Of a stretch of 64,000 nt of DNA, positions 8,322 through 42,717 are shown piece after piece. Position numbers and translations under genes: made by a program. The stretch is from Gemmatimonadaceae bacterium (GTDB lineage Bacteria; Gemmatimonadota; Gemmatimonadetes; Gemmatimonadales; Gemmatimonadaceae). The first letter of the stretch is position 1, and every line of letters starts with the position of its first letter. The notes beneath the pieces were generated by a model. It saw only the letters and a list, made by a program, of their open reading frames with translations. It ran no database searches and was not told where the DNA came from. The DNA is taken from positions 224,001 through 288,000 of the forward strand of contig JBJMOW010000004.1 in NCBI GenBank assembly GCA_045803545.1. Reading direction: 5' to 3'.

Positions 8322-9098
8322 CTACTTCCAGACTCCCTCGCGAAAGCCGACGCGGTCGATCGGCTCACCGTTCCGGGGCGGAGTCTTCCACCACACTGTA
8401 ATCCGGCCGTGATTTAGCGCAACCCACGGCGCGACAGCGGCGACATCATCGGGCGTGACCTGGCCCCGCTGATCGAAGAGATGACCCGTGGAGTGGGACA
8501 GCACGATGCCGATCCTCGGCGTCGTTGAGTTCGGATCCTCGAACACCACCACCACGCTGTCGCCTCGGCCCGCTACACTCGCCGCCGAAGGCGCGCTCCC
8601 GTAAACGACGGGCACTGGCGAGTGAAACATTCCGCCCTTGTCCATCGAGTGCGCGAAGAAAACGCCGGCGCCGTCACTCGCTTCGACGAAATAGACGAGG
8701 TACACGTAGCCGCTGGCCGGATCGTAAGTGATTCCCGGCGCTGGCCGCTGGCAACCACGGCGCCCGGCATCACGCGCATCCACATCTATTGCGGAGTCCC
8801 ATCTAGCGCCTCTATCGGGCGATCGCTGCAAGGACAGAATTACGCTGCTGTCGGAGCGAACCGACCACCAGCTTCTAAACAGCTCGCTCGTGTCACCAGC
8901 GGTTCGTATCGACATCACACATTGCGCGACCGTACCCGTGGTCGTGGGCAGTCCGGCGCTGGCGATCGCGCTGCGCGTGTCCGGATCTCCAAGCTGGGAG
9001 GAGCGGTAGCCGACGTTCCCCCACTCAACCGGCTCGGACACGCAGCCAACAAGAAAGGTCAGAGCGACCACTGGGTACCAGCTGACAGTCTTGCGCAC
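8322..9098 (-). CDS. Lipoprotein with sialidase/BNR-like (Asp-box) repeats
   Basis: LVGC lipobox after GTG 9098; RSPDRGARW, HSMDKGGMF, HSTGHLF repeats. Confidence 0.6.
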   Translation of the reverse strand: MRKTVSWYPVVALTFLVGCVSEPVEWGNVGYRSSQLGDPDTRSAIASAGLPTTTGTVAQCVMSIRTAGDTSELFRSWWSVRSDSSVILSLQRSPDRGARWDSAIDVDARDAGRRGCQRPAPGITYDPASGYVYLVYFVEASDGAGVFFAHSMDKGGMFHSPVPVVYGSAPSAASVAGRGDSVVVVFEDPNSTTPRIGIVLSHSTGHLFDQRGQVTPDDVAAVAPWVALNHGRITVWWKTPPRNGEPIDRVGFREGVWK

Positions 9099-9183
9099 GA
9101 CGCAGGTTAGCCCGGAGACATACGCCAGAGAAGCCCGCGCTAAGTATCTTTCGAGCGTAGTCGCCACCTCGAGGAACTTGCAA

Positions 9184-10944
9184 ATGGCTGCCTCCACAGT
9201 CCGACCGAAACGCGGCCCGGCCACTAAAGCCGCCGCTGATAAATCCCAGAAATCGCAGGCGACGAACGATGGTGCGTCGCCGCCAGTTGCCACCGAGCAA
9301 CCGATTCGTACCGCCACCGGCTTCAACGGAAATCGGCGGGTCCCGGCGCCAGTCAACGAGCCGATAAAGAGCTACGCGCCGGGCAGCGCCGAGCGGACCG
9401 CACTAAAGGAGCGGCTCCGCACCATGGCCGGCGAGAGGATCGAGATACCGCTCGTCATCGGCGGCAAAGAGGTCAGCACCGGAGATGTCGTCGATTCGGT
9501 GATGCCGCACAATCATCGACACGTGCTTGGCCAATGGCATCGCGCGCGCCCAGCCGATGTCGATGCCGCAATCAAGGCGGCGTCAGAAGCGGCGAAAGAT
9601 TGGGCCAACTGGTCATGGGAAGATCGCGCCGCAGTTTTTCTCAAGGCCGCCGAGCTGCTGGCGACGACGTGGCGCGCGACGCTCAACGCCGCGACGATGT
9701 TGGGTCAATCGAAGACTGCGTTCCAGGCGGAGATCGACGCGGCATGTGAGCTGATCGACTTCTGGCGCTTCAATCCGTTTTACGCGCAGCAGCTGTACGA
9801 CGAGCAGCCACTGAGCGACCACACGATGTGGAATCAGCTCGATTACCGACCGCTCGAAGGATTCGTCTATGCGGTGACGCCATTCAACTTCACCTCGATC
9901 GCTGGCAACCTGCCGACGGCCCCGGCGTTGATGGGCAACACCGTGATTTGGAAACCGGCGTCGAGCGCGATGATGAGCGCGCACTACATCATGAAGTTGC
10001 TGGAAGAGGCGGGGCTGCCGCCGGGCGTGATCAACTTCGTGGCCGGCGATCCGGCGATGATCTCCGACAAGCTGCTCGCGCATCGCGATTTGGCGGGCGT
10101 CCATTTCACCGGCAGCACGGCTGTGTTCAACAACATGTGGAAGACGATTGGCGCCAGTATGTCGCGCTACAGGTCCTATCCGAGAATCGTCGGTGAAACG
10201 GGCGGCAAGGATTTCATCGTCGCGCACCCGTCAGCGGATCCTGTTGCGCTCTCAGTCGCAATCGCGCGCGGCGGATTCGAGTACCAGGGACAGAAGTGCT
10301 CCGCGGTGAGCAGAGTGTACGTCCCGGAATCGATCTGGCCCGAAGTGCGTGATCGTACCGTCGCGATCATGAAGGAGCTCCGTATGGGCGACGTGACGGA
10401 TTTCCGGAACTTCATGGGTGCGGTTATCGACAAGAAGGCGTTTTCAAAGATTGGCGAGTATCTGGAGCACGGGAGATCGAACGCGAGCGTCGTGTCGGGC
10501 GGAGTCGCACGCGGTGAGCAGGGCTATTTCATCGAGCCGACTTTGATCGAGACCAAGGACCCGGCATTCCGGCTCCTTTGCGAAGAGATCTTTGGTCCGG
10601 TCGTGACAGCGCACGTCTATCCTGACAAGCGCTGGTCGGAGACGCTCAACATCGTCGATCAGACTTCCCCGTATGCACTGACAGGCTCGGTGTTCAGCAC
10701 CGATCGTCGCGCAATTCGCGAGGCGAACCTGGCACTGCGCAACGCCGCCGGAAATTTCTACATCAATGACAAGCCGACGGGTGCGGTAGTCGGCCAGCAG
10801 CCGTTCGGTGGCGCACGCGCTTCGGGCACAAACGACAAGGCCGGGTCCAAGCTCAATCTCGTGCGCTGGATCAGCGCGCGTACGGTCAAGGAGACCTTCT
10901 CGCCTCCGACCGATTATCGATATCCGTTCATGAGCGCGGAGTAA
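9184..10944 (+). CDS. pruA: L-glutamate gamma-semialdehyde (P5C) dehydrogenase
   Basis: NEPIKSYAPGS, PFNF, FTGST, GETGGKDF, YQGQKCSA, EEIFGP, QPFGGARASGTNDKAG; start reassigned to ATG 9184. Confidence 0.93.
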   Translation: MAASTVRPKRGPATKAAADKSQKSQATNDGASPPVATEQPIRTATGFNGNRRVPAPVNEPIKSYAPGSAERTALKERLRTMAGERIEIPLVIGGKEVSTGDVVDSVMPHNHRHVLGQWHRARPADVDAAIKAASEAAKDWANWSWEDRAAVFLKAAELLATTWRATLNAATMLGQSKTAFQAEIDAACELIDFWRFNPFYAQQLYDEQPLSDHTMWNQLDYRPLEGFVYAVTPFNFTSIAGNLPTAPALMGNTVIWKPASSAMMSAHYIMKLLEEAGLPPGVINFVAGDPAMISDKLLAHRDLAGVHFTGSTAVFNNMWKTIGASMSRYRSYPRIVGETGGKDFIVAHPSADPVALSVAIARGGFEYQGQKCSAVSRVYVPESIWPEVRDRTVAIMKELRMGDVTDFRNFMGAVIDKKAFSKIGEYLEHGRSNASVVSGGVARGEQGYFIEPTLIETKDPAFRLLCEEIFGPVVTAHVYPDKRWSETLNIVDQTSPYALTGSVFSTDRRAIREANLALRNAAGNFYINDKPTGAVVGQQPFGGARASGTNDKAGSKLNLVRWISARTVKETFSPPTDYRYPFMSAE

Positions 10945-10970
10945 TCTGTGCGACTGCGAACTGCGCTGAT

Positions 10971-11329
10971 TTTCCAGATCTCGGTGCGGTCAGTCGGCGA
11001 GGTGCGGGGCTGTCGGAGCTTCTCGCCCCGCTAACTCGGCGAAATCCGTATGCGTGGCGGTCACAGCTGACGCGGGGCTGCGCGACCTCCGCCAACCCCG
11101 CACCTCGCCTCCTTCCCTCGCTCGCGCGTAAACCCTGCGGCAGCCCGCGCGCCCAAGATTTTGCCACGGCGCAGGTACAGATCTCGATTGGAGAGGCAAG
11201 GGACGTTCCCTGAACTAATTCGCAGACCCGCCCGTTCCAGACCGCCACCCATATGGCTGTCCGACCGTAGCGGGTCGAGTTTTTTTCAGGGAATGTCCCT
11301 TGCCACGACCTACCGCTATGTCTAGGAAA
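10971..11329 (+). ncRNA. Putative structured RNA or non-autonomous element, copy 1
   Basis: Stems 10996-11009/11096-11109 (14 bp) and 11195-11214/11285-11304 (20 bp, one G-U); terminal closing stem; homologous to 16097-16486. Confidence 0.65.
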
Positions 11330-11341
11330 CGACGATTTCAC

Positions 11342-11356: not shown

Positions 11357-11421
11357 GCACGCGAGGACGGCAGTCTGGTCCGCGTGTTGCTCTCTAGGTA
11401 GTCCCGTTTTTTTGCGACGAG

Positions 11422-14076
11422 ATGAGTACCGCTACAGAGCCACTGATCGACGCGGAGCAGTTGGAGGTTTCGCGAATCCGCGCCCTGCGCGGGCCCAACT
11501 ACTGGCGCCTCGCACCGGTCATCGCCTGCGACGTTCAACTCGGCAGCCTGGAGCACGTCAGCTCCGCTGACATCTCCGGATTCTACGAGCGCCTCACGGA
11601 GGCGCTGCCTACGCTCGCCGAGCATCACTGCACGCGACAGGAGCCGGGCGGATTTCTGGAGAGGTTGCGTGAGGGTACGCACCTCCCGCACATCCTCGAG
11701 CACGTTGCGCTGGAGCTGCAGTCGCTCACCGGCAGCGACGTCACCTTCGGGCGAGTTGTTCCTTCCGGTGATCCCCACACATGGTGGGTGATCGTCGCCT
11801 ACGAAGAAGAAGAGGTCGGGCTGCAGAGTATGCGCGACGCGGTGAAAATCATTCGCGCCTGCATCGCCGACCAGCCGATCGACGTCAACTCCATCGTCGA
11901 GCAGCTTCTCTCTCTGTACGAATCGGTTCGGCTCGGCCCATCGACGGCTGCGGTAGTCGAGGAGGCGAAACGACGCGGGATCCCCGTACGCCGTCTCAAC
12001 AACTACTCGCTCGTCCAGCTGGGACTCGGCAAGAATCTCCGGCGCATTCAGGCGACGCTATCGGACTATACGAGTGCGATCGCAGTCGAGATTGCCCAGG
12101 ACAAGGATGATACCAAGCGCGTGCTGGGCAACATCGGATTGCCGGTGCCGAAGGGTGACGTCGCGCGCTCACTCGAGCGTGCGCTGGAAATCGTCGACGA
12201 GGTCGGCTACCCAGTCATCCTGAAGCCGCTCGACGCCAGTCACGGGCGCGGCATTTCCGGTCGCATCGACAACGACGGGGCGCTGACTGAGGCGTGGGAG
12301 GACGCTCGCGAATTCGGCAATCGCATCGTCGTCGAGCAGTACACCGAAGGGCGCGACCATCGCGTGCTGGTCGTTAACGGACGAGTTGTCGCGTGCGCAG
12401 AGAGAATTCCAGCGCGCGTCATCGGAGATGGAACGAGTGCGATCGCTCAATTGATCGAGCGCGAGAACCGTGATCCGCGTCGAGGCGTCGGACATACCAA
12501 GACACTGACCAAGCTGCCGTCCGACTCGCGCACGGTCGCCTTCCTCGCCAAGCAGCAGCTCACGCTGCAATCGGTGCCGGCAAAGGGACAGGAAGTGTGT
12601 TTGCGCGGCACTGCCAATCTCTCTACGGGTGGGACTTCAATCGATCGCACCGACGAGATGCATCCGGATAACATCACTGCGTGTGAGATGGCGGCGGGCA
12701 TCATCGGACTCGACATCGCCGGCATTGATGTTCTGACGCGGGATATCTCCGTTCCATTCCGCGAGAACGGCGCAGTCATCATCGAGGTCAATGCGGGACC
12801 GGGGATCAGGATGCATACGCATCCGACAGAGGGTACGGCGCGAAACGTCGCGGCGCCGATCGTAGACATGCTATATCCGCCCGGCACCAAGGCAACGATT
12901 CCGGTGATTGCGGTCACTGGCACCAACGGCAAGACGACGACCGTTCGTCTCATCGCTCACCTCTTCCGACTCGGCGAGAACGTCGTCGGCTTCACCACCA
13001 CCGACGGCACCTATCTGCAGAACAGGCTCGTGCTCGAGGGTGATATGACCGGCCCGTTCTCCGCCAACATCATTCTGTCGAATCCAACTGTGGACATCGC
13101 CGTGCTCGAGACGGCGCGCGGCGGCCTGCTGCGCGCAGGACTCGGCTTCGACGAAGTCGACGTCGGTGTCGTGCTCAACGTCAGTGCCGATCATCTCGGC
13201 CTCCGGGGCATCAACACCGTCGAGCAACTCGCCGATGTCAAAGCGGTGGTCGCGGCGGTTGTGAAGCGCGAAGGACATGCGGTGCTCAATGCGGACGATC
13301 CGCTCGTATATGCGATGCGCGACCGCACGCCGGGAGATCTTGTTCTTTTCTCCACCAGGCCGGAGGGGGAAAGCGAAGAATTCGAGGATCACCTCTCACG
13401 GAACGGTATCGGCGCCCGGATCGAGAACGACACCTTTGTCATCCGCCGCGGACGGCTTCGTATTCCTATCGCGCCGGTTCGCGAAGTCCCGCTGATGCTC
13501 GGCGGCGCCGCCAGGTTCCAGCAGCAGAACATTCTCGCCGCAATCGCGACGGCGTATGTGCAAGGCATGCGGTACGACGACATTCGAGCGGGCCTGTTGT
13601 CGTTTTTCCCATCGCCGTCGTTGACCCCGGGCCGCCTCAACCTGATGCGAGTGCAGAACGGTCGCGTGCTCGTCGACTACGCTCACAATACCGCAGCGAT
13701 TCGCGGGCTCATGGATTTTGTTCAGTCGATCGACGCGACCCGGCGAATCGCTCTCGTCACCGCTCCGGGTGACCGAAGGGATGAGGATCTACGAGAAGTC
13801 GGGCGCCTCGTAGCGCATCTGGATTACGTGATCGTCAAGGAAGACCAAGAGCGGCGCGGCCGAGCGAAAGGAGACATCGCAGATCTGATCGTGGACGGCC
13901 TGATGGATGGAGGGATGAGAGAGAATCAATACGAGGTCATCTACACTGAGCAGGAGGCAATCCACCACGCGCTCGGCCGCATGAAAGACAACGACCTCGT
14001 GGTCATTCTCGCTGATGACGTCAAAGCCAGCATTGAGTGCGTGCGCAAGTATGCCCCTGAAGGCGCACGTTCGTGA
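11422..14076 (+). CDS. cphA: Cyanophycin synthetase (CphA1 type)
   Basis: 884 aa; LRGPNYW, CX19HxxEH N domain, LGPST, ATP-grasp (KPLDASHGRG, ANLSTGG, EVNAGPG), Mur-like domain (VTGTNGKTT, ETARGG, DYAHN). Confidence 0.95.
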   Translation: MSTATEPLIDAEQLEVSRIRALRGPNYWRLAPVIACDVQLGSLEHVSSADISGFYERLTEALPTLAEHHCTRQEPGGFLERLREGTHLPHILEHVALELQSLTGSDVTFGRVVPSGDPHTWWVIVAYEEEEVGLQSMRDAVKIIRACIADQPIDVNSIVEQLLSLYESVRLGPSTAAVVEEAKRRGIPVRRLNNYSLVQLGLGKNLRRIQATLSDYTSAIAVEIAQDKDDTKRVLGNIGLPVPKGDVARSLERALEIVDEVGYPVILKPLDASHGRGISGRIDNDGALTEAWEDAREFGNRIVVEQYTEGRDHRVLVVNGRVVACAERIPARVIGDGTSAIAQLIERENRDPRRGVGHTKTLTKLPSDSRTVAFLAKQQLTLQSVPAKGQEVCLRGTANLSTGGTSIDRTDEMHPDNITACEMAAGIIGLDIAGIDVLTRDISVPFRENGAVIIEVNAGPGIRMHTHPTEGTARNVAAPIVDMLYPPGTKATIPVIAVTGTNGKTTTVRLIAHLFRLGENVVGFTTTDGTYLQNRLVLEGDMTGPFSANIILSNPTVDIAVLETARGGLLRAGLGFDEVDVGVVLNVSADHLGLRGINTVEQLADVKAVVAAVVKREGHAVLNADDPLVYAMRDRTPGDLVLFSTRPEGESEEFEDHLSRNGIGARIENDTFVIRRGRLRIPIAPVREVPLMLGGAARFQQQNILAAIATAYVQGMRYDDIRAGLLSFFPSPSLTPGRLNLMRVQNGRVLVDYAHNTAAIRGLMDFVQSIDATRRIALVTAPGDRRDEDLREVGRLVAHLDYVIVKEDQERRGRAKGDIADLIVDGLMDGGMRENQYEVIYTEQEAIHHALGRMKDNDLVVILADDVKASIECVRKYAPEGARS

Positions 14077-15185
14077 GCGGCGGTCGTTTCCCCGATCCAA
14101 AATCCGAGATCAGGATGACGACACTCCACGCCACGCGCGGAGCGAATTACTGGTCGCGGTTGTCGGTCATCCGCATGGATCTCAGCATCGGTGCATACGA
14201 GGAGATTTCTTCGGCTGACGTACCGGGTTTCACCCAATCGCTGGTGGCAACGATGCCCGGTTTGCGCGATCACCGGTGCAGCATCGGCGAGCCGGGTGGA
14301 TTCCTGATTCGACTCAAGCGCGGCACCTATTGCGCACACATCGTCGAGCACGTCGCGCTCGAGCTACAGGGGATGATCGGTTACGACGTGGGTTACGGCC
14401 GCACACGTGGTGGGGACAAAGTTGGCGATTACACGCTTATCTTCGAGCACGAGCACGAGGCAGTGGGAATGCGCGCTGCCGCGCTGGCACTGGAGATCGT
14501 GCAAGCGGCGTTCGCCGGCACGCTCAAATCAGTAGATCATGCCGTCGCCGAACTGGAAGCATTGTCGAAGACGCCCAAGACCCCGGCGCTCATTCAACAC
14601 GTGTTATGTGGCATTACGGGCGGCAGTTATCGGGATGAAACGAGAAGTGAGCTGGTGCGCCTCGGCTTCGGCAACGGGGAGCTGATCGTTGACGTCTCGC
14701 CCGCGTATGTCTTGCAGCAGGGACTCCCCTATTCGCGCGCTGACATCGGAATCATACTCGACTCTCATCTCACCGATGTTCCCGAGCGATACCAGGTGCA
14801 ACGACGCGCCGACCGATTGGTGTCGGTTCTTGCGGACGCGGTGCCTGAAGATGGCATCGTGATCGTTCCAGCAAAGAACTGGGAAGTGCAGGATCTCGTC
14901 CGGGATGCTGGCTGCCGCGTCGCAATTTTTGCAATCGATGGCGATGTCACGGCCCGTGACAAGAAAGTCGCACGTGCTTGCGCCACAGTCGAAGGGCGCC
15001 GGATCATGATCGAGCAGCTGGATACGGTGGTTGAGGGAGGCTGGCTCCACGACCGGGCGCCCGTCGCAGCTCAAGTCGCGGCGGCTCTTGCTGCGTTTAC
15101 GCTGAACGAGTTCGAGCCGGTCGCCGCTCAGCGGACAGACGGATCGCGACGCTCGTCGTTAGATGAGCGCGTGGGAGGTCCCTGA
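14073..15185 (+). CDS. Short CphA paralogue: N domain plus degenerate Mur-like domain, no ATP-grasp domain
   Basis: RGANYW, CSIGEPGGF..HIVEHVALELQ; GTG start overlaps the cphA stop. Confidence 0.85.
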   Translation: MSGGRFPDPKSEIRMTTLHATRGANYWSRLSVIRMDLSIGAYEEISSADVPGFTQSLVATMPGLRDHRCSIGEPGGFLIRLKRGTYCAHIVEHVALELQGMIGYDVGYGRTRGGDKVGDYTLIFEHEHEAVGMRAAALALEIVQAAFAGTLKSVDHAVAELEALSKTPKTPALIQHVLCGITGGSYRDETRSELVRLGFGNGELIVDVSPAYVLQQGLPYSRADIGIILDSHLTDVPERYQVQRRADRLVSVLADAVPEDGIVIVPAKNWEVQDLVRDAGCRVAIFAIDGDVTARDKKVARACATVEGRRIMIEQLDTVVEGGWLHDRAPVAAQVAAALAAFTLNEFEPVAAQRTDGSRRSSLDERVGGP

Positions 15186-16084
15186 TTACAGAAGCGACTA
15201 ACTCGAACGGACGCGCGCGTCGTCGGCTTCGCGACGCCAGAGGAAGTCTCATACTCATTGGCGGCGGCACTACCGCCACCGGCGCAGCACTCGGCGCCTT
15301 CATCGAGATGACCGGCGCCAGAGAAGGCGCTTCAATCGTCGGATTTACGACGGCATCGAGTCAAGTGAGCGTTGCTCGCGAAATGTGGCTGGCAGATCTG
15401 TCACAGGCTGGCGCCACCAACGCTTCGATTCCCATCGTCGGCGCGCGGGAGCACGCGTCGGATCCCCGGATCATCGACGAGGTTCGCAAGGCGAAGGGAG
15501 TTTTTCTTGGTGGGGGCGATCAGGTGAAGCTGGTGTCATGCCTGAGCGGAACTCCGCTCGAGGAGGCCATTCGTGATGCGTATCTCGATGGCGCCATCAT
15601 TTGCGGCAGCAGCGCCGGCGCCGCGGCGCTGACCAAGACGACACTCGCCGGCAACGAAGTCGATGAAGAGGGAAAGCTCGTCGAACAGTACATCGGCCCT
15701 GGGCTCGGCCTCCTCGGCTATCATACTCTGGTCGACACGCACTTCACTCAGCGTCGCCGGCTTTATCGTCTCTTTGTGGCGATTGCGGAATTTCCGGCAT
15801 TGATGGGACTTGGCATCGACGAAGACACCGCACTAATCGTGAAGCGCGAGATCGGCACTGTCGTCGGAAAGGGCGGAGTGACGTTCGTCGACGGCAGCAG
15901 TGTTCGCTTCAACAACGCCAGCGACGTGACGAAAGGGCCCGAACTGACCATCAGCGCTTTGCGCGTCGGCATCGTCGGAACGGGGCAGCAGTTCAACCTG
16001 CGCAAGCGCGAAGTCGTCGCGCTCCTCTCCCCGCCCGCCGCGCACGAAGTCCAATCGCGCGTCACCTCCGGCCGAGAGACTTAG
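15182..16084 (+). CDS. cphB: Cyanophycinase (peptidase S51); start probably non-canonical, upstream of ATG 15308
   Basis: GSLILIGGG, GGDQ, GSSAGA (Ser), DTHFTQRRRL (His), GIDEDTA (Glu). Confidence 0.88.
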   Translation: MITEATNSNGRARRRLRDARGSLILIGGGTTATGAALGAFIEMTGAREGASIVGFTTASSQVSVAREMWLADLSQAGATNASIPIVGAREHASDPRIIDEVRKAKGVFLGGGDQVKLVSCLSGTPLEEAIRDAYLDGAIICGSSAGAAALTKTTLAGNEVDEEGKLVEQYIGPGLGLLGYHTLVDTHFTQRRRLYRLFVAIAEFPALMGLGIDEDTALIVKREIGTVVGKGGVTFVDGSSVRFNNASDVTKGPELTISALRVGIVGTGQQFNLRKREVVALLSPPAAHEVQSRVTSGRET

Positions 16085-16096
16085 CTTCGGTTCCGT

Positions 16097-16486
16097 CTAG
16101 ATTTCCGCGCGGTCAGTCGGCGAGGTGCCGGGTCGCCGGAAATGCTCGCCGCGCCTGTCTAGCGCATCGTTGTTCCTGGCGTTCCAGGTGAGAGGGCGCG
16201 GCTGTGCGATGTTCCTTCGACCCGGCACCTCGCCTCCTTCCCACTCGCGTTAGTGCGACCAAGTGAGCGTCGCTCGCGCCGTGGTACTCAATGGGATCGT
16301 GCGCGCGGGCGCTAAGGAGGCGCGCCATGGCGGGGCACAGATCTCGACAGGGAGAGGCGAGGGGTGTTCTCTGAAAAACATCGCGCAGACCCGCCTCCGC
16401 TCAGAACGCCAACGACAATGATGTCGCAAGACAGCGGGTCGAGCAGTTTTTCAGAGAATGCCCCTCGCCTCGACCCGCGCGAAAAT
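16097..16486 (+). ncRNA. Putative structured RNA or non-autonomous element, copy 2
   Basis: Stems 16119-16135/16218-16234 (17 bp) and 16356-16379/16446-16469 (24 bp, two G-U); terminal closing stem; lies between convergent genes. Confidence 0.65.
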
Positions 16487-16502
16487 GCAAATGTCGTCGG
16501 TC

Positions 16503-18854
16503 CTAAAACCTCGCCTCGACGTAGAGATTCGCGCGGACCGCATGCTCAGGGTAGATACCTCTGGCGAGATCGACACGAATGAGACCGTCCATGAACGACG
16601 CGCCGACACCGACGCCGCTGAGCGGCCTTCCCGGGTGCGAGACACTGTCACGCGAACCGGCCCAGCCCAAATCGGCGAAGGCGATTTTGCGGAATGCGAC
16701 ATTGCGCGTGCCGATTTCCAGGCTGCTCGTCCAGAACGTATCTCCAACGCCCGCACCAGCACGCTGTCCGCGCACGGTCCCCACACCACCGATGTAGAAG
16801 TTCTTCTGGATCGGCAAATGTCCGCCCGACGTGCCTCCGCCGAGCGTAACCGCGGCGTCGAGGCCGCCCAGTCCGTGTGAAAGCGTTGTCTGCAACAGCC
16901 CGCGGGAATAATCGAACGTACCTGCTGCCGCTTCGAGCTTGAGGTCGGTCAGCGCGCGGAATCCGTGCGGGTCGAGCCCGAACGACGAGTGATGCAGAGC
17001 GGACACGCCGACGATTTTCCCGTTCTCGGCGTTGATGTTGGTCAGGCCCCCTTTCACGCCTCCTGGATGCGCCACCGAGAACTCCGTATTAACGGTCGCG
17101 TCGAAGTGCTGCTCCGCGAACAGGCGCCACGTAGTGAACAGCGGTCCACCGTCGCCAGTTATCTCGCCGCCCCAGGTGCGATAGTAAAAGCCTTCATCGC
17201 GGCCGAAGAACAGAGCCGAAAGTGAGCTGCTGAAGCCGAGTGGGTCACCCCAATCGTTGGCTGCCATCAGTCGCCGATAGACGCCAACACCGATACTGCG
17301 TCGCCCATCAGTACGCTCGATCGATGCTTCGGCATTCGGCGACAAGTCTGCAACACCGATTCTGAACGACGAGTGCGCCGAGTATCCCTCACCGAGAACC
17401 TTGTCGACTGCGAATCCGCTGGAGAGTCCCTCGATCCGGTTGAAGCGCGTCCATGGAAACCCATATGAGATGCTCGCGGGCAACGGCGAGAAGCCTGGCT
17501 GCGCGGTAAGAGTCAACGCTTCGGCGACTAGCGCATCACGCTCAGCCGAACCGAACACCGTTTCGCCCTCATCGTAGATCGACTTCGGTAACGAGCTCGA
17601 GTGAGCGAGCGCGACTGTATCGCACGGAACTCTGACCATGATCTGCAGATTCTCTTCGGTGCGATCGTGTACGCGTACGCGCTCAGTTCCGGTCTTACAC
17701 TCGTCGTGACGGCGATCGCGCCTGGCAGCTCGCGAGAGCGAGTCCGTCGCGGTATCAGCGACCGCGATCGTCACGGGCGTCATTGGCTCGTCGCCATTGA
17801 CGCTCGAATAGGTGTAGCGCTGCTCCAGCTTGAACGGGATGCGCATGAAGCTCACCTGCGCTTCGCCTTCGATCGTCTGCGCGCGCGGCAGCCAGAATTC
17901 TCCCTCGTGCAACCCGTACTCGACGGTGACGGCACTGATATTCGCCTTCATCGGTGTCATAATCGGCTTGAGCCAGCCAGGAATGTCATCGTCGGGGTCC
18001 TTCTCGTCCTGCGATTCTTCCTTGGCGACGGCCATGATGTCCATCTCCTGCGCCATGCGATAAACCGCGCGCACGAGATGAGCAGTCGACATGTCGAACC
18101 AGAGAGATCCGACGCCGACGTTCCATTTTGGCTGGCGCGGACGAATTCTCAGCTCGCGCAGCTCGATTCGCTTGCCGCCGGGAAGCTGGAAGGTCACCGA
18201 GTCGCCCGACTCGTAGGTGTAATACGCTTCCGCTCCTTCAGCGAGCGGATGGATCATCTCGCCTTCGTCAATTTTCGCCTTGGCGAGTCCGGAGCCGATC
18301 CAAAGTGTCTCGCGCCCGGGTGCATACGGGATGTCTGCCATCTCGCCGCTCATATTCAGATCGGGATCGCCATCGTTGATGCCCTCGATCATTGGGAAGA
18401 CCGCGCGCTGTCCGGTGACATCGACAATCGCGCCTTTGCCGCGCTGCCACACTACGTGTGATGCGCGCTCGCCGCGGAGCAGCAACCTGCTGCGACCGAT
18501 TTTCTTGAATCCCATCCCGACAGAAAGGCGCTCGTAACCGCTCGACTCATAGCCGCTGAGCGTCGAGTCCTGAATCAGCCGCGCCATTCTTGCGCGCTGC
18601 AGGAGATCACGGGCGGCGGGATCCTTGAACGCGTTTGCCAGGGTTTTCGGCGTCAGAGGCAATTGACGGGCGATGCGCGCCGTGCGCTGCAGTGAATCTC
18701 GATGCTGTCTTACAACCCGCATCGAATCGCGTCTGACATCCCGTTGATACGCGATGGAGTCTCGTTTTGCCTTGTCGACGCTGTCTTTCGGCTTGTTGCC
18801 GATTGTTACGGAAATCTGAGTCTGCGCGAAGACAGCGAGGGCGAGGACGAGCAT
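16503..18854 (-). CDS. Large outer-membrane beta-barrel protein of unknown function
   Basis: Signal peptide, RFNRIEGL, GGVGTVRG (Omp85-like loop), amphipathic strands, terminal Phe (YVEARF). Confidence 0.7.
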   Translation of the reverse strand: MLVLALAVFAQTQISVTIGNKPKDSVDKAKRDSIAYQRDVRRDSMRVVRQHRDSLQRTARIARQLPLTPKTLANAFKDPAARDLLQRARMARLIQDSTLSGYESSGYERLSVGMGFKKIGRSRLLLRGERASHVVWQRGKGAIVDVTGQRAVFPMIEGINDGDPDLNMSGEMADIPYAPGRETLWIGSGLAKAKIDEGEMIHPLAEGAEAYYTYESGDSVTFQLPGGKRIELRELRIRPRQPKWNVGVGSLWFDMSTAHLVRAVYRMAQEMDIMAVAKEESQDEKDPDDDIPGWLKPIMTPMKANISAVTVEYGLHEGEFWLPRAQTIEGEAQVSFMRIPFKLEQRYTYSSVNGDEPMTPVTIAVADTATDSLSRAARRDRRHDECKTGTERVRVHDRTEENLQIMVRVPCDTVALAHSSSLPKSIYDEGETVFGSAERDALVAEALTLTAQPGFSPLPASISYGFPWTRFNRIEGLSSGFAVDKVLGEGYSAHSSFRIGVADLSPNAEASIERTDGRRSIGVGVYRRLMAANDWGDPLGFSSSLSALFFGRDEGFYYRTWGGEITGDGGPLFTTWRLFAEQHFDATVNTEFSVAHPGGVKGGLTNINAENGKIVGVSALHHSSFGLDPHGFRALTDLKLEAAAGTFDYSRGLLQTTLSHGLGGLDAAVTLGGGTSGGHLPIQKNFYIGGVGTVRGQRAGAGVGDTFWTSSLEIGTRNVAFRKIAFADLGWAGSRDSVSHPGRPLSGVGVGASFMDGLIRVDLARGIYPEHAVRANLYVEARF

Positions 18855-39545: not shown

Positions 39546-39783
39546 GACTGCGGACTGCGGACTGAGAACTAAAAAGCGCACTGCACCGCTGGTAGCTGAT
39601 AGCAGCTGGCTATTAGCTGTTCGCTGCAAGCGACGGGACAGATCGCGCTAGAGTCAGAGGAAGGGGGTTCAGTTCGACTTTACGCGCGTGAGATCTGTCT
39701 GGTTGCAGGCAGCCATCAGCTAACAGCGTGCTGCTATCAGCTACCAGCGAGGTAGTTAGCAGTTAAGTCCGCAGTTCGCAGTC
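39546..39783. repeat. Long heptamer-based palindromic element
   Basis: Arms gactgcggactgcggact / agtccgcagttcgcagtc; perfect 20-bp stem 39587-39606/39730-39749. Confidence 0.85.
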
Positions 39784-42585: not shown

Positions 42586-42717
42586 GACTGAGGCCGAGGA
42601 CTAAGTGCATCTATGATTGCTGACTAAGTGAGGATTGCAGACCACGAGGATCCTCGGTTGTACTCGGTCCTCACTTAATCCTCGGTGATCGGTGCCCCTA
42701 GTCCGCGGCCCTCAGTC
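42586..42717. repeat. Imperfect palindromic intergenic element, copy B
   Basis: Termini gactgagg/cctcagtc, inner taagtgagga/tcctcactta; homologous to 3780-3918. Confidence 0.72.

Follow-up and report, generated by a model that had tools for sequence, protein, structure and literature searches.

A genus-restricted intergenic repeat of inverted hairpin units beside cyanophycin genes in Gemmatimonadaceae, probably a non-autonomous folded DNA element

The window, a stretch of 64,000 nt from a Gemmatimonadaceae contig, carries the element studied here at positions 10971–11329, between the stop codon of pruA and the start codon of cphA. The pruA gene (9091–10944, + strand) encodes an L-glutamate gamma-semialdehyde dehydrogenase (TIGR01236, 798.7 bits, over the cut-off) and probably starts later than 9091. 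The cphA gene for cyanophycin synthetase (11422–14076, +; TIGR02068, 1123.7 bits) heads a block bracketed by two copies of the element. Next in the block is a gene for a 370-aa relative of cyanophycin synthetase that matches the N-domain only (14073–15185, +) and is coupled to cphA by an overlapping stop and start, followed by cphB for cyanophycinase (15308–16084, +; TIGR02069, 167.4 bits). Copy 2 of the element lies between cphB and a convergent gene of 783 aa (16503–18854, −) that has no NCBIfam match. Its C-terminal Phe suggests the label of a putative outer-membrane barrel-like protein, and its stop is the commonest unit site in the genus. Two short motifs lie outside copy 1: a cphA leader motif (11377–11421, +), kept also at doublet-free sites, and directly beyond the left tail a remnant of the ACTGCGRAC end motif of a second, unrelated palindrome family (10950–10968, +).

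The element consists of two related hairpin units of ∼150 nt, inverted and arranged head to head around a variable spacer; such a pair is called a doublet below. The left unit of copy 1 (10975–11117) folds on the − strand and turns its tail to the pruA stop, 30 nt away. It has an outer stem of 23 bp (10996–11018/11087–11109), two tandem G·A steps in its foot, and an interior of family A. The right unit (11175–11325) folds on the + strand and combines the head ACAGATC..GGAGAGG, an outer stem of 20 bp (11195–11214/11285–11304), an interior with an inner GCA/GA loop and a GACCCGC/GCGGGTC helix, and a degenerate tail. The G+C-rich spacer between the two heads (11118–11174) is different in each doublet. 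Copy 2 is built likewise, with a left unit (16097–16245, −) whose tail is 13 nt behind the cphB stop, a spacer (16246–16334), and a right unit (16335–16490, +) whose tail adjoins the stop of the convergent 783-aa gene. A non-palindromic loop motif at 11041–11062 in the 5′ domain is the reverse complement of 11240–11261 in the 3′ domain, and in the doublet at C2:678884 the left unit is clearly a unit of the right type in reverse complement. On its own strand, a unit runs from a GTTACAGATC-like head facing the spacer through a GG-GA foot, a stem of ∼20 bp, the interior, the return strand, and a GA-CC foot to a GAGAT tail that points outward. The scaffold consensus of the tail is GACC…GAGAT, and the positions preceding the foot are weakly conserved.

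Several claims of an earlier note, made from the letters alone, can be checked directly. The five identical blocks said to be shared in the same order by the two spacers are present once in each and in that order (10986/16109, 11100/16225, 11177/16337, 11221/16384, and 11269/16433), and the two longest occur nowhere else in the genome. The stem arms said to be kept by compensatory changes lie at 11195/11285 and 16356/16450; on the + strand this stem has one G·T in copy 1 and two G·T pairs in copy 2. In a fold test with 100 shuffles per copy and strand, 0 of 100 shuffles were as good in each case, with z scores of −6.78 (+) and −8.13 (−) for copy 1 and −7.53 (+) and −7.64 (−) for copy 2. Covariation holds when homologues are added. 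In 23 units of the element's own type, pairing holds in 90% of cells, both partners vary in 25 of the 36 pairs, and the covariation score is 0.367 against 0.131 when shuffled and at most 0.116 when slid; in the outer helix of 24 pairs, pairing reaches 96% and 20 pairs vary at both positions. The note did not recognise the element as tRNA, tmRNA, RNase P, SRP, 6S, or a riboswitch, and an Rfam covariance-model scan of the window returns no match to the element at gathering score. At E ≤ 10 the element draws only chance matches to miRNA and sRNA models, far under their cut-offs, and five loci with other interiors give the neighboring tRNA only. Compensatory changes are likewise seen in REPIN stems (PMC3116915), so covariation by itself does not imply RNA, and ssDNA and RNA motifs are described as computationally hard to distinguish (PMC5737381).

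The feet of a unit define its strand. Their GA dinucleotides are opposed as a tandem G·A mismatch, which on the opposite strand would read T·C/T·C. The G·A strand is + in the right unit and − in the left unit; in the 5′ domain of copy 1, mismatches that are C·A and T·C on + are G·T and G·A on −. The argument for a folded + strand that had been drawn from G-U pairs is therefore valid for the 3′ half of the element and fails for the 5′ half. Of 114 units collected with a Watson-Crick-only finder, 110 keep G·A/G·A in the foot, and 2 have had it turned into a perfect pair. Family B has a 2-bp step flanked on both sides by a tandem G·A pair; the two strands of the step are complementary in 56 of 59 contexts, and five pair types are seen. 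Because the mismatches are kept while adjoining pairs change together, one defined strand per unit is selected to fold. Simple homogenization or repair of a palindrome would erase the mismatches and would not yield the family-B step pattern. A further strand criterion, the excess of G·T over A·C on the G·A strand, was weakened on re-test: the counts of 81 and 15 become 16 and 11 once inherited columns are removed, and the excess is mostly inherited.

Strand polarity bears on the proposal that the element is a single + strand ncRNA or mobile RNA of ∼360–400 nt with a closed multi-arm fold. The minimum free energy structure does pair the ends (z −6.8), and the 3′ domain has its G·T pairs on +. 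The pairing of the ends stands, but it follows from the two tails being inverted relatives, and the single closed fold does not stand. The two halves have opposite polarity, they occur alone and in mixed-family pairings, and no reverse transcriptase was found in the source genome. Solo and mixed-family units largely refute the model, which is extremely improbable. The part of the proposal that survives is a real covarying, multi-copy structure without an Rfam family that shows signs of mobility, namely a patchy distribution and swapping between sites. A soil metatranscriptome, in the form of contigs that cannot show absence, has near-identical pieces on cphA and the next gene and no depth in the bin 11004–11337.

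Where the earlier note counted two copies, the genome holds 14 units at 8 loci, comprising six head-to-head doublets and two solos (12 of 14 units are in doublets). Five loci lie between convergent genes, three between co-directional genes, and none between divergent genes. The co-directional doublets include those at the pruA-cphA site and at C4:242140, and the solo unit at C2:695380 is read by the upstream gene on its G·A strand. Considering the tail side of 102 units, a stop codon is found within 120 nt in 60, usually at 10–30 nt, neither a stop nor a start in 24, and a start in 18, the starts being based on crude ORF calls of which many are spurious. Neighboring ORFs appear by eye to be housekeeping-like or unremarkable. 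A recurrent doublet site (L019, L022, L026, L181, and L188) is between a tRNA gene directly upstream and a convergent gene; the tRNA of L026 is supported by an Rfam tRNA match.

The host group is one genus of uncultured soil bacteria, and units were not seen in the other genera of the family that were searched. At least 43 of 104 genomes of the genus bear units, a tally compiled by hand from pattern searches and inspection of the pruA junction; tallies over 109 genomes include G070–G074, whose loci were left out of the locus analyses. Since interiors differ, BLAST finds few copies: copy 1 has a real match in only 1 of 60 relatives, and the right unit of copy 2 matches 25 of 109 genus genomes. 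A strict pattern occurs in 5 genomes of the genus, in 0 of 175 other genomes of the family, and in 1 of 210 genomes of two other families, this lone match having no unit likeness in the part shown. The tail pattern retrieves 106 stretches from GTDB contigs; among the 80 listed, 18 carry the full hairpin, all titled Gemmatimonadaceae, Gemmatimonadales, or Gemmatimonadota, and none of the 57 loci from other taxa does. The head pattern has 27 matches in metagenomes, and the loci among the matches listed are all units, mostly at the same kinds of junction. Its 3 matches in IMG/VR are all coding DNA without a hairpin, and blastn against plasmid and phage collections gives no match. No prior description of the family was found in the literature, judged from search listings with a coverage that stops short of subscription journals and supplements.

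One outer scaffold encloses at least five unrelated interiors, and at a given site one interior or whole unit is substituted for another. The automatic family labels are crude, most family-A units having landed in the class “other.” Whatever the interior, the core enclosed by the feet has a median length of 122 nt (102 distinct units, range 105–160 nt). Over short times copies are inherited, as a close ortholog of copy 2 has units 91–92% identical and flanks 93% identical. The sister genome in the pruA tree, G014, has pruA and cphA genes that are 85% identical and units at five shared sites, and 7 of its 10 units match a different copy better. At the pruA-cphA site of G014, both units have interiors of family C, and their identity of 49–54% to copy 1 is background. 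Moreover, the tail flanks of 99 units sort into 37 classes, the same flank carrying now one family and now another, and collapsed, chimeric, and flipped copies occur (L057, L071, L342, and L349). By eye, neither a target duplication nor a clean empty site is seen at the flanks.

The pruA junction was compared in 28 genomes. The next gene is cphA with a unit in 3 and cphA without a unit in 9; in 8, with seven changes on the tree, the convergent gene follows with a unit and no cph genes, and the remaining 8 are in other states. The three genomes in which a unit precedes cphA group together with weak support (88/67); their sister has a single doublet and lacks the cph block at that site. This pattern fits a loss or a re-integration of the cph block that may have occurred by recombination between doublets, in either direction. 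Many relatives have short plain spacers of 74–155 nt at the same junction. In others it is filled by unrelated long palindromes (L053 and L070, the pruA-cphA spacers of G085 and G127, as well as L058 and L062), which marks the junction as a hot spot for several repeat families. Whole genes also occur within or between remnants of units. L051 has a cargo ORF after a left tail, L073/L170 has a gene of ∼218 aa flanked by a truncated left unit on one side and a right unit on the other, and L017 has a small membrane-protein gene between two directly repeated units.

Tandem G·A pairs are also stable in RNA. Mini-hairpins of the GCGNAGC type are reported to be far more stable as DNA than as RNA, with a Tm of 76.5 °C for DNA forms and 39.0 °C for r(GCGAAAGC) (PMC13037366). 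In 25 cores of family C, 25 such mini-hairpins are on the G·A strand and 0 on the other; in family B the counts are 38 and 16. Family A, the element's own interior, lacks a DNA-type mini-hairpin: the class to which most family-A units belong has 1 in 25 cores.

The main alternative, which we consider unlikely, is a host-selected RNA element of 3′-UTRs, in which the doublet is a two-way terminator, a collision barrier, or an exonuclease block and gene conversion proceeds without transposition. Each convergent mRNA would then pass the near unit on its weak strand and fold the far unit on its G·A strand. Tails placed behind stop codons agree with this, as do the predominance of convergent and lack of divergent loci in the genome, the filling of the same junctions with differing interiors throughout the genus, a hairpin with a T-run at 11262–11285, and the solo unit at C2:695380, whose G·A strand is the one read from the upstream gene. 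However, the T-run sits within a long stem, the plain spacers noted above serve many relatives at the same junction, and families B and C carry DNA-type mini-hairpins. Furthermore, doublets persist at co-directional sites (pruA-cphA and C4:242140), although no sense transcript there covers one of the two G·A strands; at pruA-cphA, for example, this is the folded strand of the left unit, yet its G·A polarity is intact. The RNA element and a DNA repeat are not exclusive, and both can hold.

A second RNA model would have two small RNAs transcribed outward from a spacer promoter, each starting at a GGGA foot and antisense to the end of the neighboring gene. It would explain why both G·A strands are directed away from the spacer, why unit length is narrowly kept, and why stems covary. 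On the other hand, no sigma-70-like promoter was found, the head motif varies where a −10 box would be fixed, unrelated interiors interchange at one site, and the units of the close ortholog are no more conserved than its flanks. This model is very unlikely.

The earlier note asked whether some copies enclose or adjoin a transposase, nuclease, or reverse transcriptase gene, and none does at any copy examined. More generally, no mobilizing gene is linked to units among the families searched, a set to which DDE transposases, HNH, TnpB, and serine recombinases do not belong. The RAYT family Y1_Tnp has 0 members in the source genome, which is 93% complete; it occurs in 12 of 109 genus genomes, only 2 of the 12 unit-bearing, and none of its genes is flanked by units. 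In five genomes, GIY-YIG matches are mostly frames of 370–610 aa at loci where units are absent, and PF13366 (PD-(D/E)XK_3) and PF04480 (DUF559) are found in 0 of 5 genomes each. Searches for reverse transcriptase, IS110, and IS91 gave absent, weak, or sporadic results without a link to units, and no IS110 or IS91 gene is common to five unit-rich genomes. The PF00589 members of the source genome are XerC-like, XerD-like, an IntI, and one of phage type, again without a link to units. At C4:593000–596500 (L239), a phage-type integrase adjoins an ORF that is rolling-circle Rep-like by eye in what appears to be a small integrated element, with no units nearby.

The IntI enters a further alternative, in which one DNA strand of a unit folds into an attC-like site on which the resident integron integrase or a different tyrosine recombinase acts, each junction being a cassette slot. 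The attC core consensus is GTTRRRY/RYYYAAC. In the unit, no such core is found in attC order; GTT is at the head and AAC at the tail, which is the reverse. The genome's real attC sites look different. They belong to a chromosomal integron at C2:655000–660305, where an IntI gene (TIGR02249) adjoins a putative ATP-dependent ligase gene and is accompanied by cassettes and canonical attC sites; the L-box letters of these sites resemble the unit head. Units resemble attC, as described in the source, in lying directly after a stop codon and in forming a single-strand hairpin with a conserved stem, strand-defining unpaired features, and a terminal structure that varies freely (PMC2727003). The attC-type features present in a unit are the variable top and the strand-specific mismatches, its spacer being partly paired. 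The differing cargo genes at the pruA site (L051 and L073) and the gene between two directly repeated units (L017) would also agree with cassettes. Units differ from attC in their core, in a dispersed head-to-head layout without tandem arrays, and in having no association with IntI. IntI occurs in 52 of 109 genus genomes; in the comparison of the two groups it is in 22 of 43 unit-bearing and 26 of 61 other genomes (p = 0.43), and no unit is near any of 17 intI loci. An attC-like role is very unlikely.

Known palindromic DNA repeats offer closer parallels. According to two REPIN papers, REPINs mobilized by RAYTs are non-autonomous, as is proposed here, and consist of inverted doublets in extragenic DNA, with spacers that vary, stems that show compensatory changes, and singlets left as remnants (PMC3116915, PMC5581495). 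In the same accounts REPIN units measure 20–40 nt and number hundreds of copies, whereas the present units are ∼150 nt with a long internal fold and number tens (PMC3116915, PMC5581495). They also differ from REPINs in that a fixed GTAG-type tag is missing, a RAYT is found neither in the genome nor next to a unit, and interiors are interchangeable inside one scaffold. The preponderance of inverted doublets with a spacer is as in REPs and REPINs; a high copy number at random extragenic sites is not, given 8 loci and junctions that recur across the genus. The GTAG and CGTC families of REPs and BIMEs, in the part of a REP survey that was available, resemble the units in lying downstream of coding regions, between convergent or co-directional genes, mostly as dimers of opposite orientation (PMC3733652). 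CGTC REPs are given there without a known transposase, a further likeness (PMC3733652). The units differ from both families in size, in having no terminal tag, and in their multi-arm interiors. The phyla listed in the same part of that survey do not include Gemmatimonadota (PMC3733652). A MITE would likewise have terminal inverted repeats, which correspond to the two tails that are inverted relatives and pair; it would differ by a target-site duplication, of which none is seen by eye, and by a cognate IS with the same ends, which was not found for IS110 and IS91 in five unit-rich genomes.

Taken together, the observations are best explained, with a probability of about 0.6, by a non-autonomous, genus-restricted, REPIN/BIME-like intergenic DNA repeat that folds when single-stranded, seldom moves into new sites, and has copies that often overwrite one another through exchange. 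Among known repeats, the family most resembles the REP-type DNA repeats, with units of a larger size. It would work like a REPIN but fails the REPIN tests of size, end tag, copy number, and RAYT; with no RAYT, nuclease, reverse transcriptase, or integrase linked to units, it is not a REPIN by definition. The architecture, the strand polarity, and the exchange are directly shown; that the units act as DNA, and that an enzyme acts on them in trans, is what we infer. The folded form may be single-stranded DNA exposed in replication or repair and recognized by its structure at the scaffold. New sites may be colonized rarely, via a trans-acting enzyme that is lost, host-encoded, or of another family. 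Existing copies could change frequently, with recombination or gene conversion carrying sequence from one scattered copy to another and template switching altering single hairpins from within. Doublets would incidentally bracket or drop neighboring genes, here the cyanophycin block. Read-through mRNA would carry a strong hairpin, possibly co-opted for termination or 3′ protection, as has been proposed for REPs. Against this explanation, the low copy number (14 units) and the many sites shared genus-wide fit retention by selection equally well as mobility.

A bolder proposal, tentative and on balance unlikely, is that the family represents a new class of mobile DNA. A candidate recombinase or nuclease would read only the folded ssDNA scaffold, that is, the G·A-footed stem and the tail, so that any interior of ∼120 nt could ride along and pairs of doublets could act as handles for moving or deleting operons such as the cyanophycin block.

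The present family bears on the origin and spread of palindromic repeats that have no known transposase, such as CGTC REPs. It separates what is kept (the outer stem, the tandem G·A foot, the tail behind a stop, and the unit length) from what is free (the whole interior), and its >100 natural variants indicate which features to mutate and which to use as protein bait. For ncRNA scans it is a warning case: a repeat with halves that fold on opposite strands produces both strong covariation and G·U pairs. The units may also account for the patchy position of the cyanophycin operon in the genus.

The same genomes contain other long palindromes. IVS-like hairpin elements with PF05635 genes resemble the units in their long, copy-specific, always-paired arms behind stop codons, but the unit scaffold is found in none of them, and what they have is a gene or an ACTGCGRAC end. 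Five relatives have 5–11 PF05635 matches per genome, each gene in its own arms. The source genome has eight loci of this four-helix-bundle family, also known as the 23S IVS protein family (C4:457251, C5:27136, C4:382346, C4:1518086, C6:61416, C4:1539421, C2:990951, and C5:154518), most of them by eye within long, copy-specific inverted arms. The second palindrome family is represented in the window at 39546–39783, with 92-nt arms, ACTGCGGAC…GTCCGCAGT ends, and many copies in the genome; its ends also bound some PF05635 genes. That the unit scaffold shares the ACTGCGRAC end motif was considered and rejected, since only 4 of 101 unit tails carry it. Finally, a palindrome of intergenic type at 42592–42710 has 43-nt arms that are 74% complementary, and its arm resembles the flanks of one four-helix-bundle gene.
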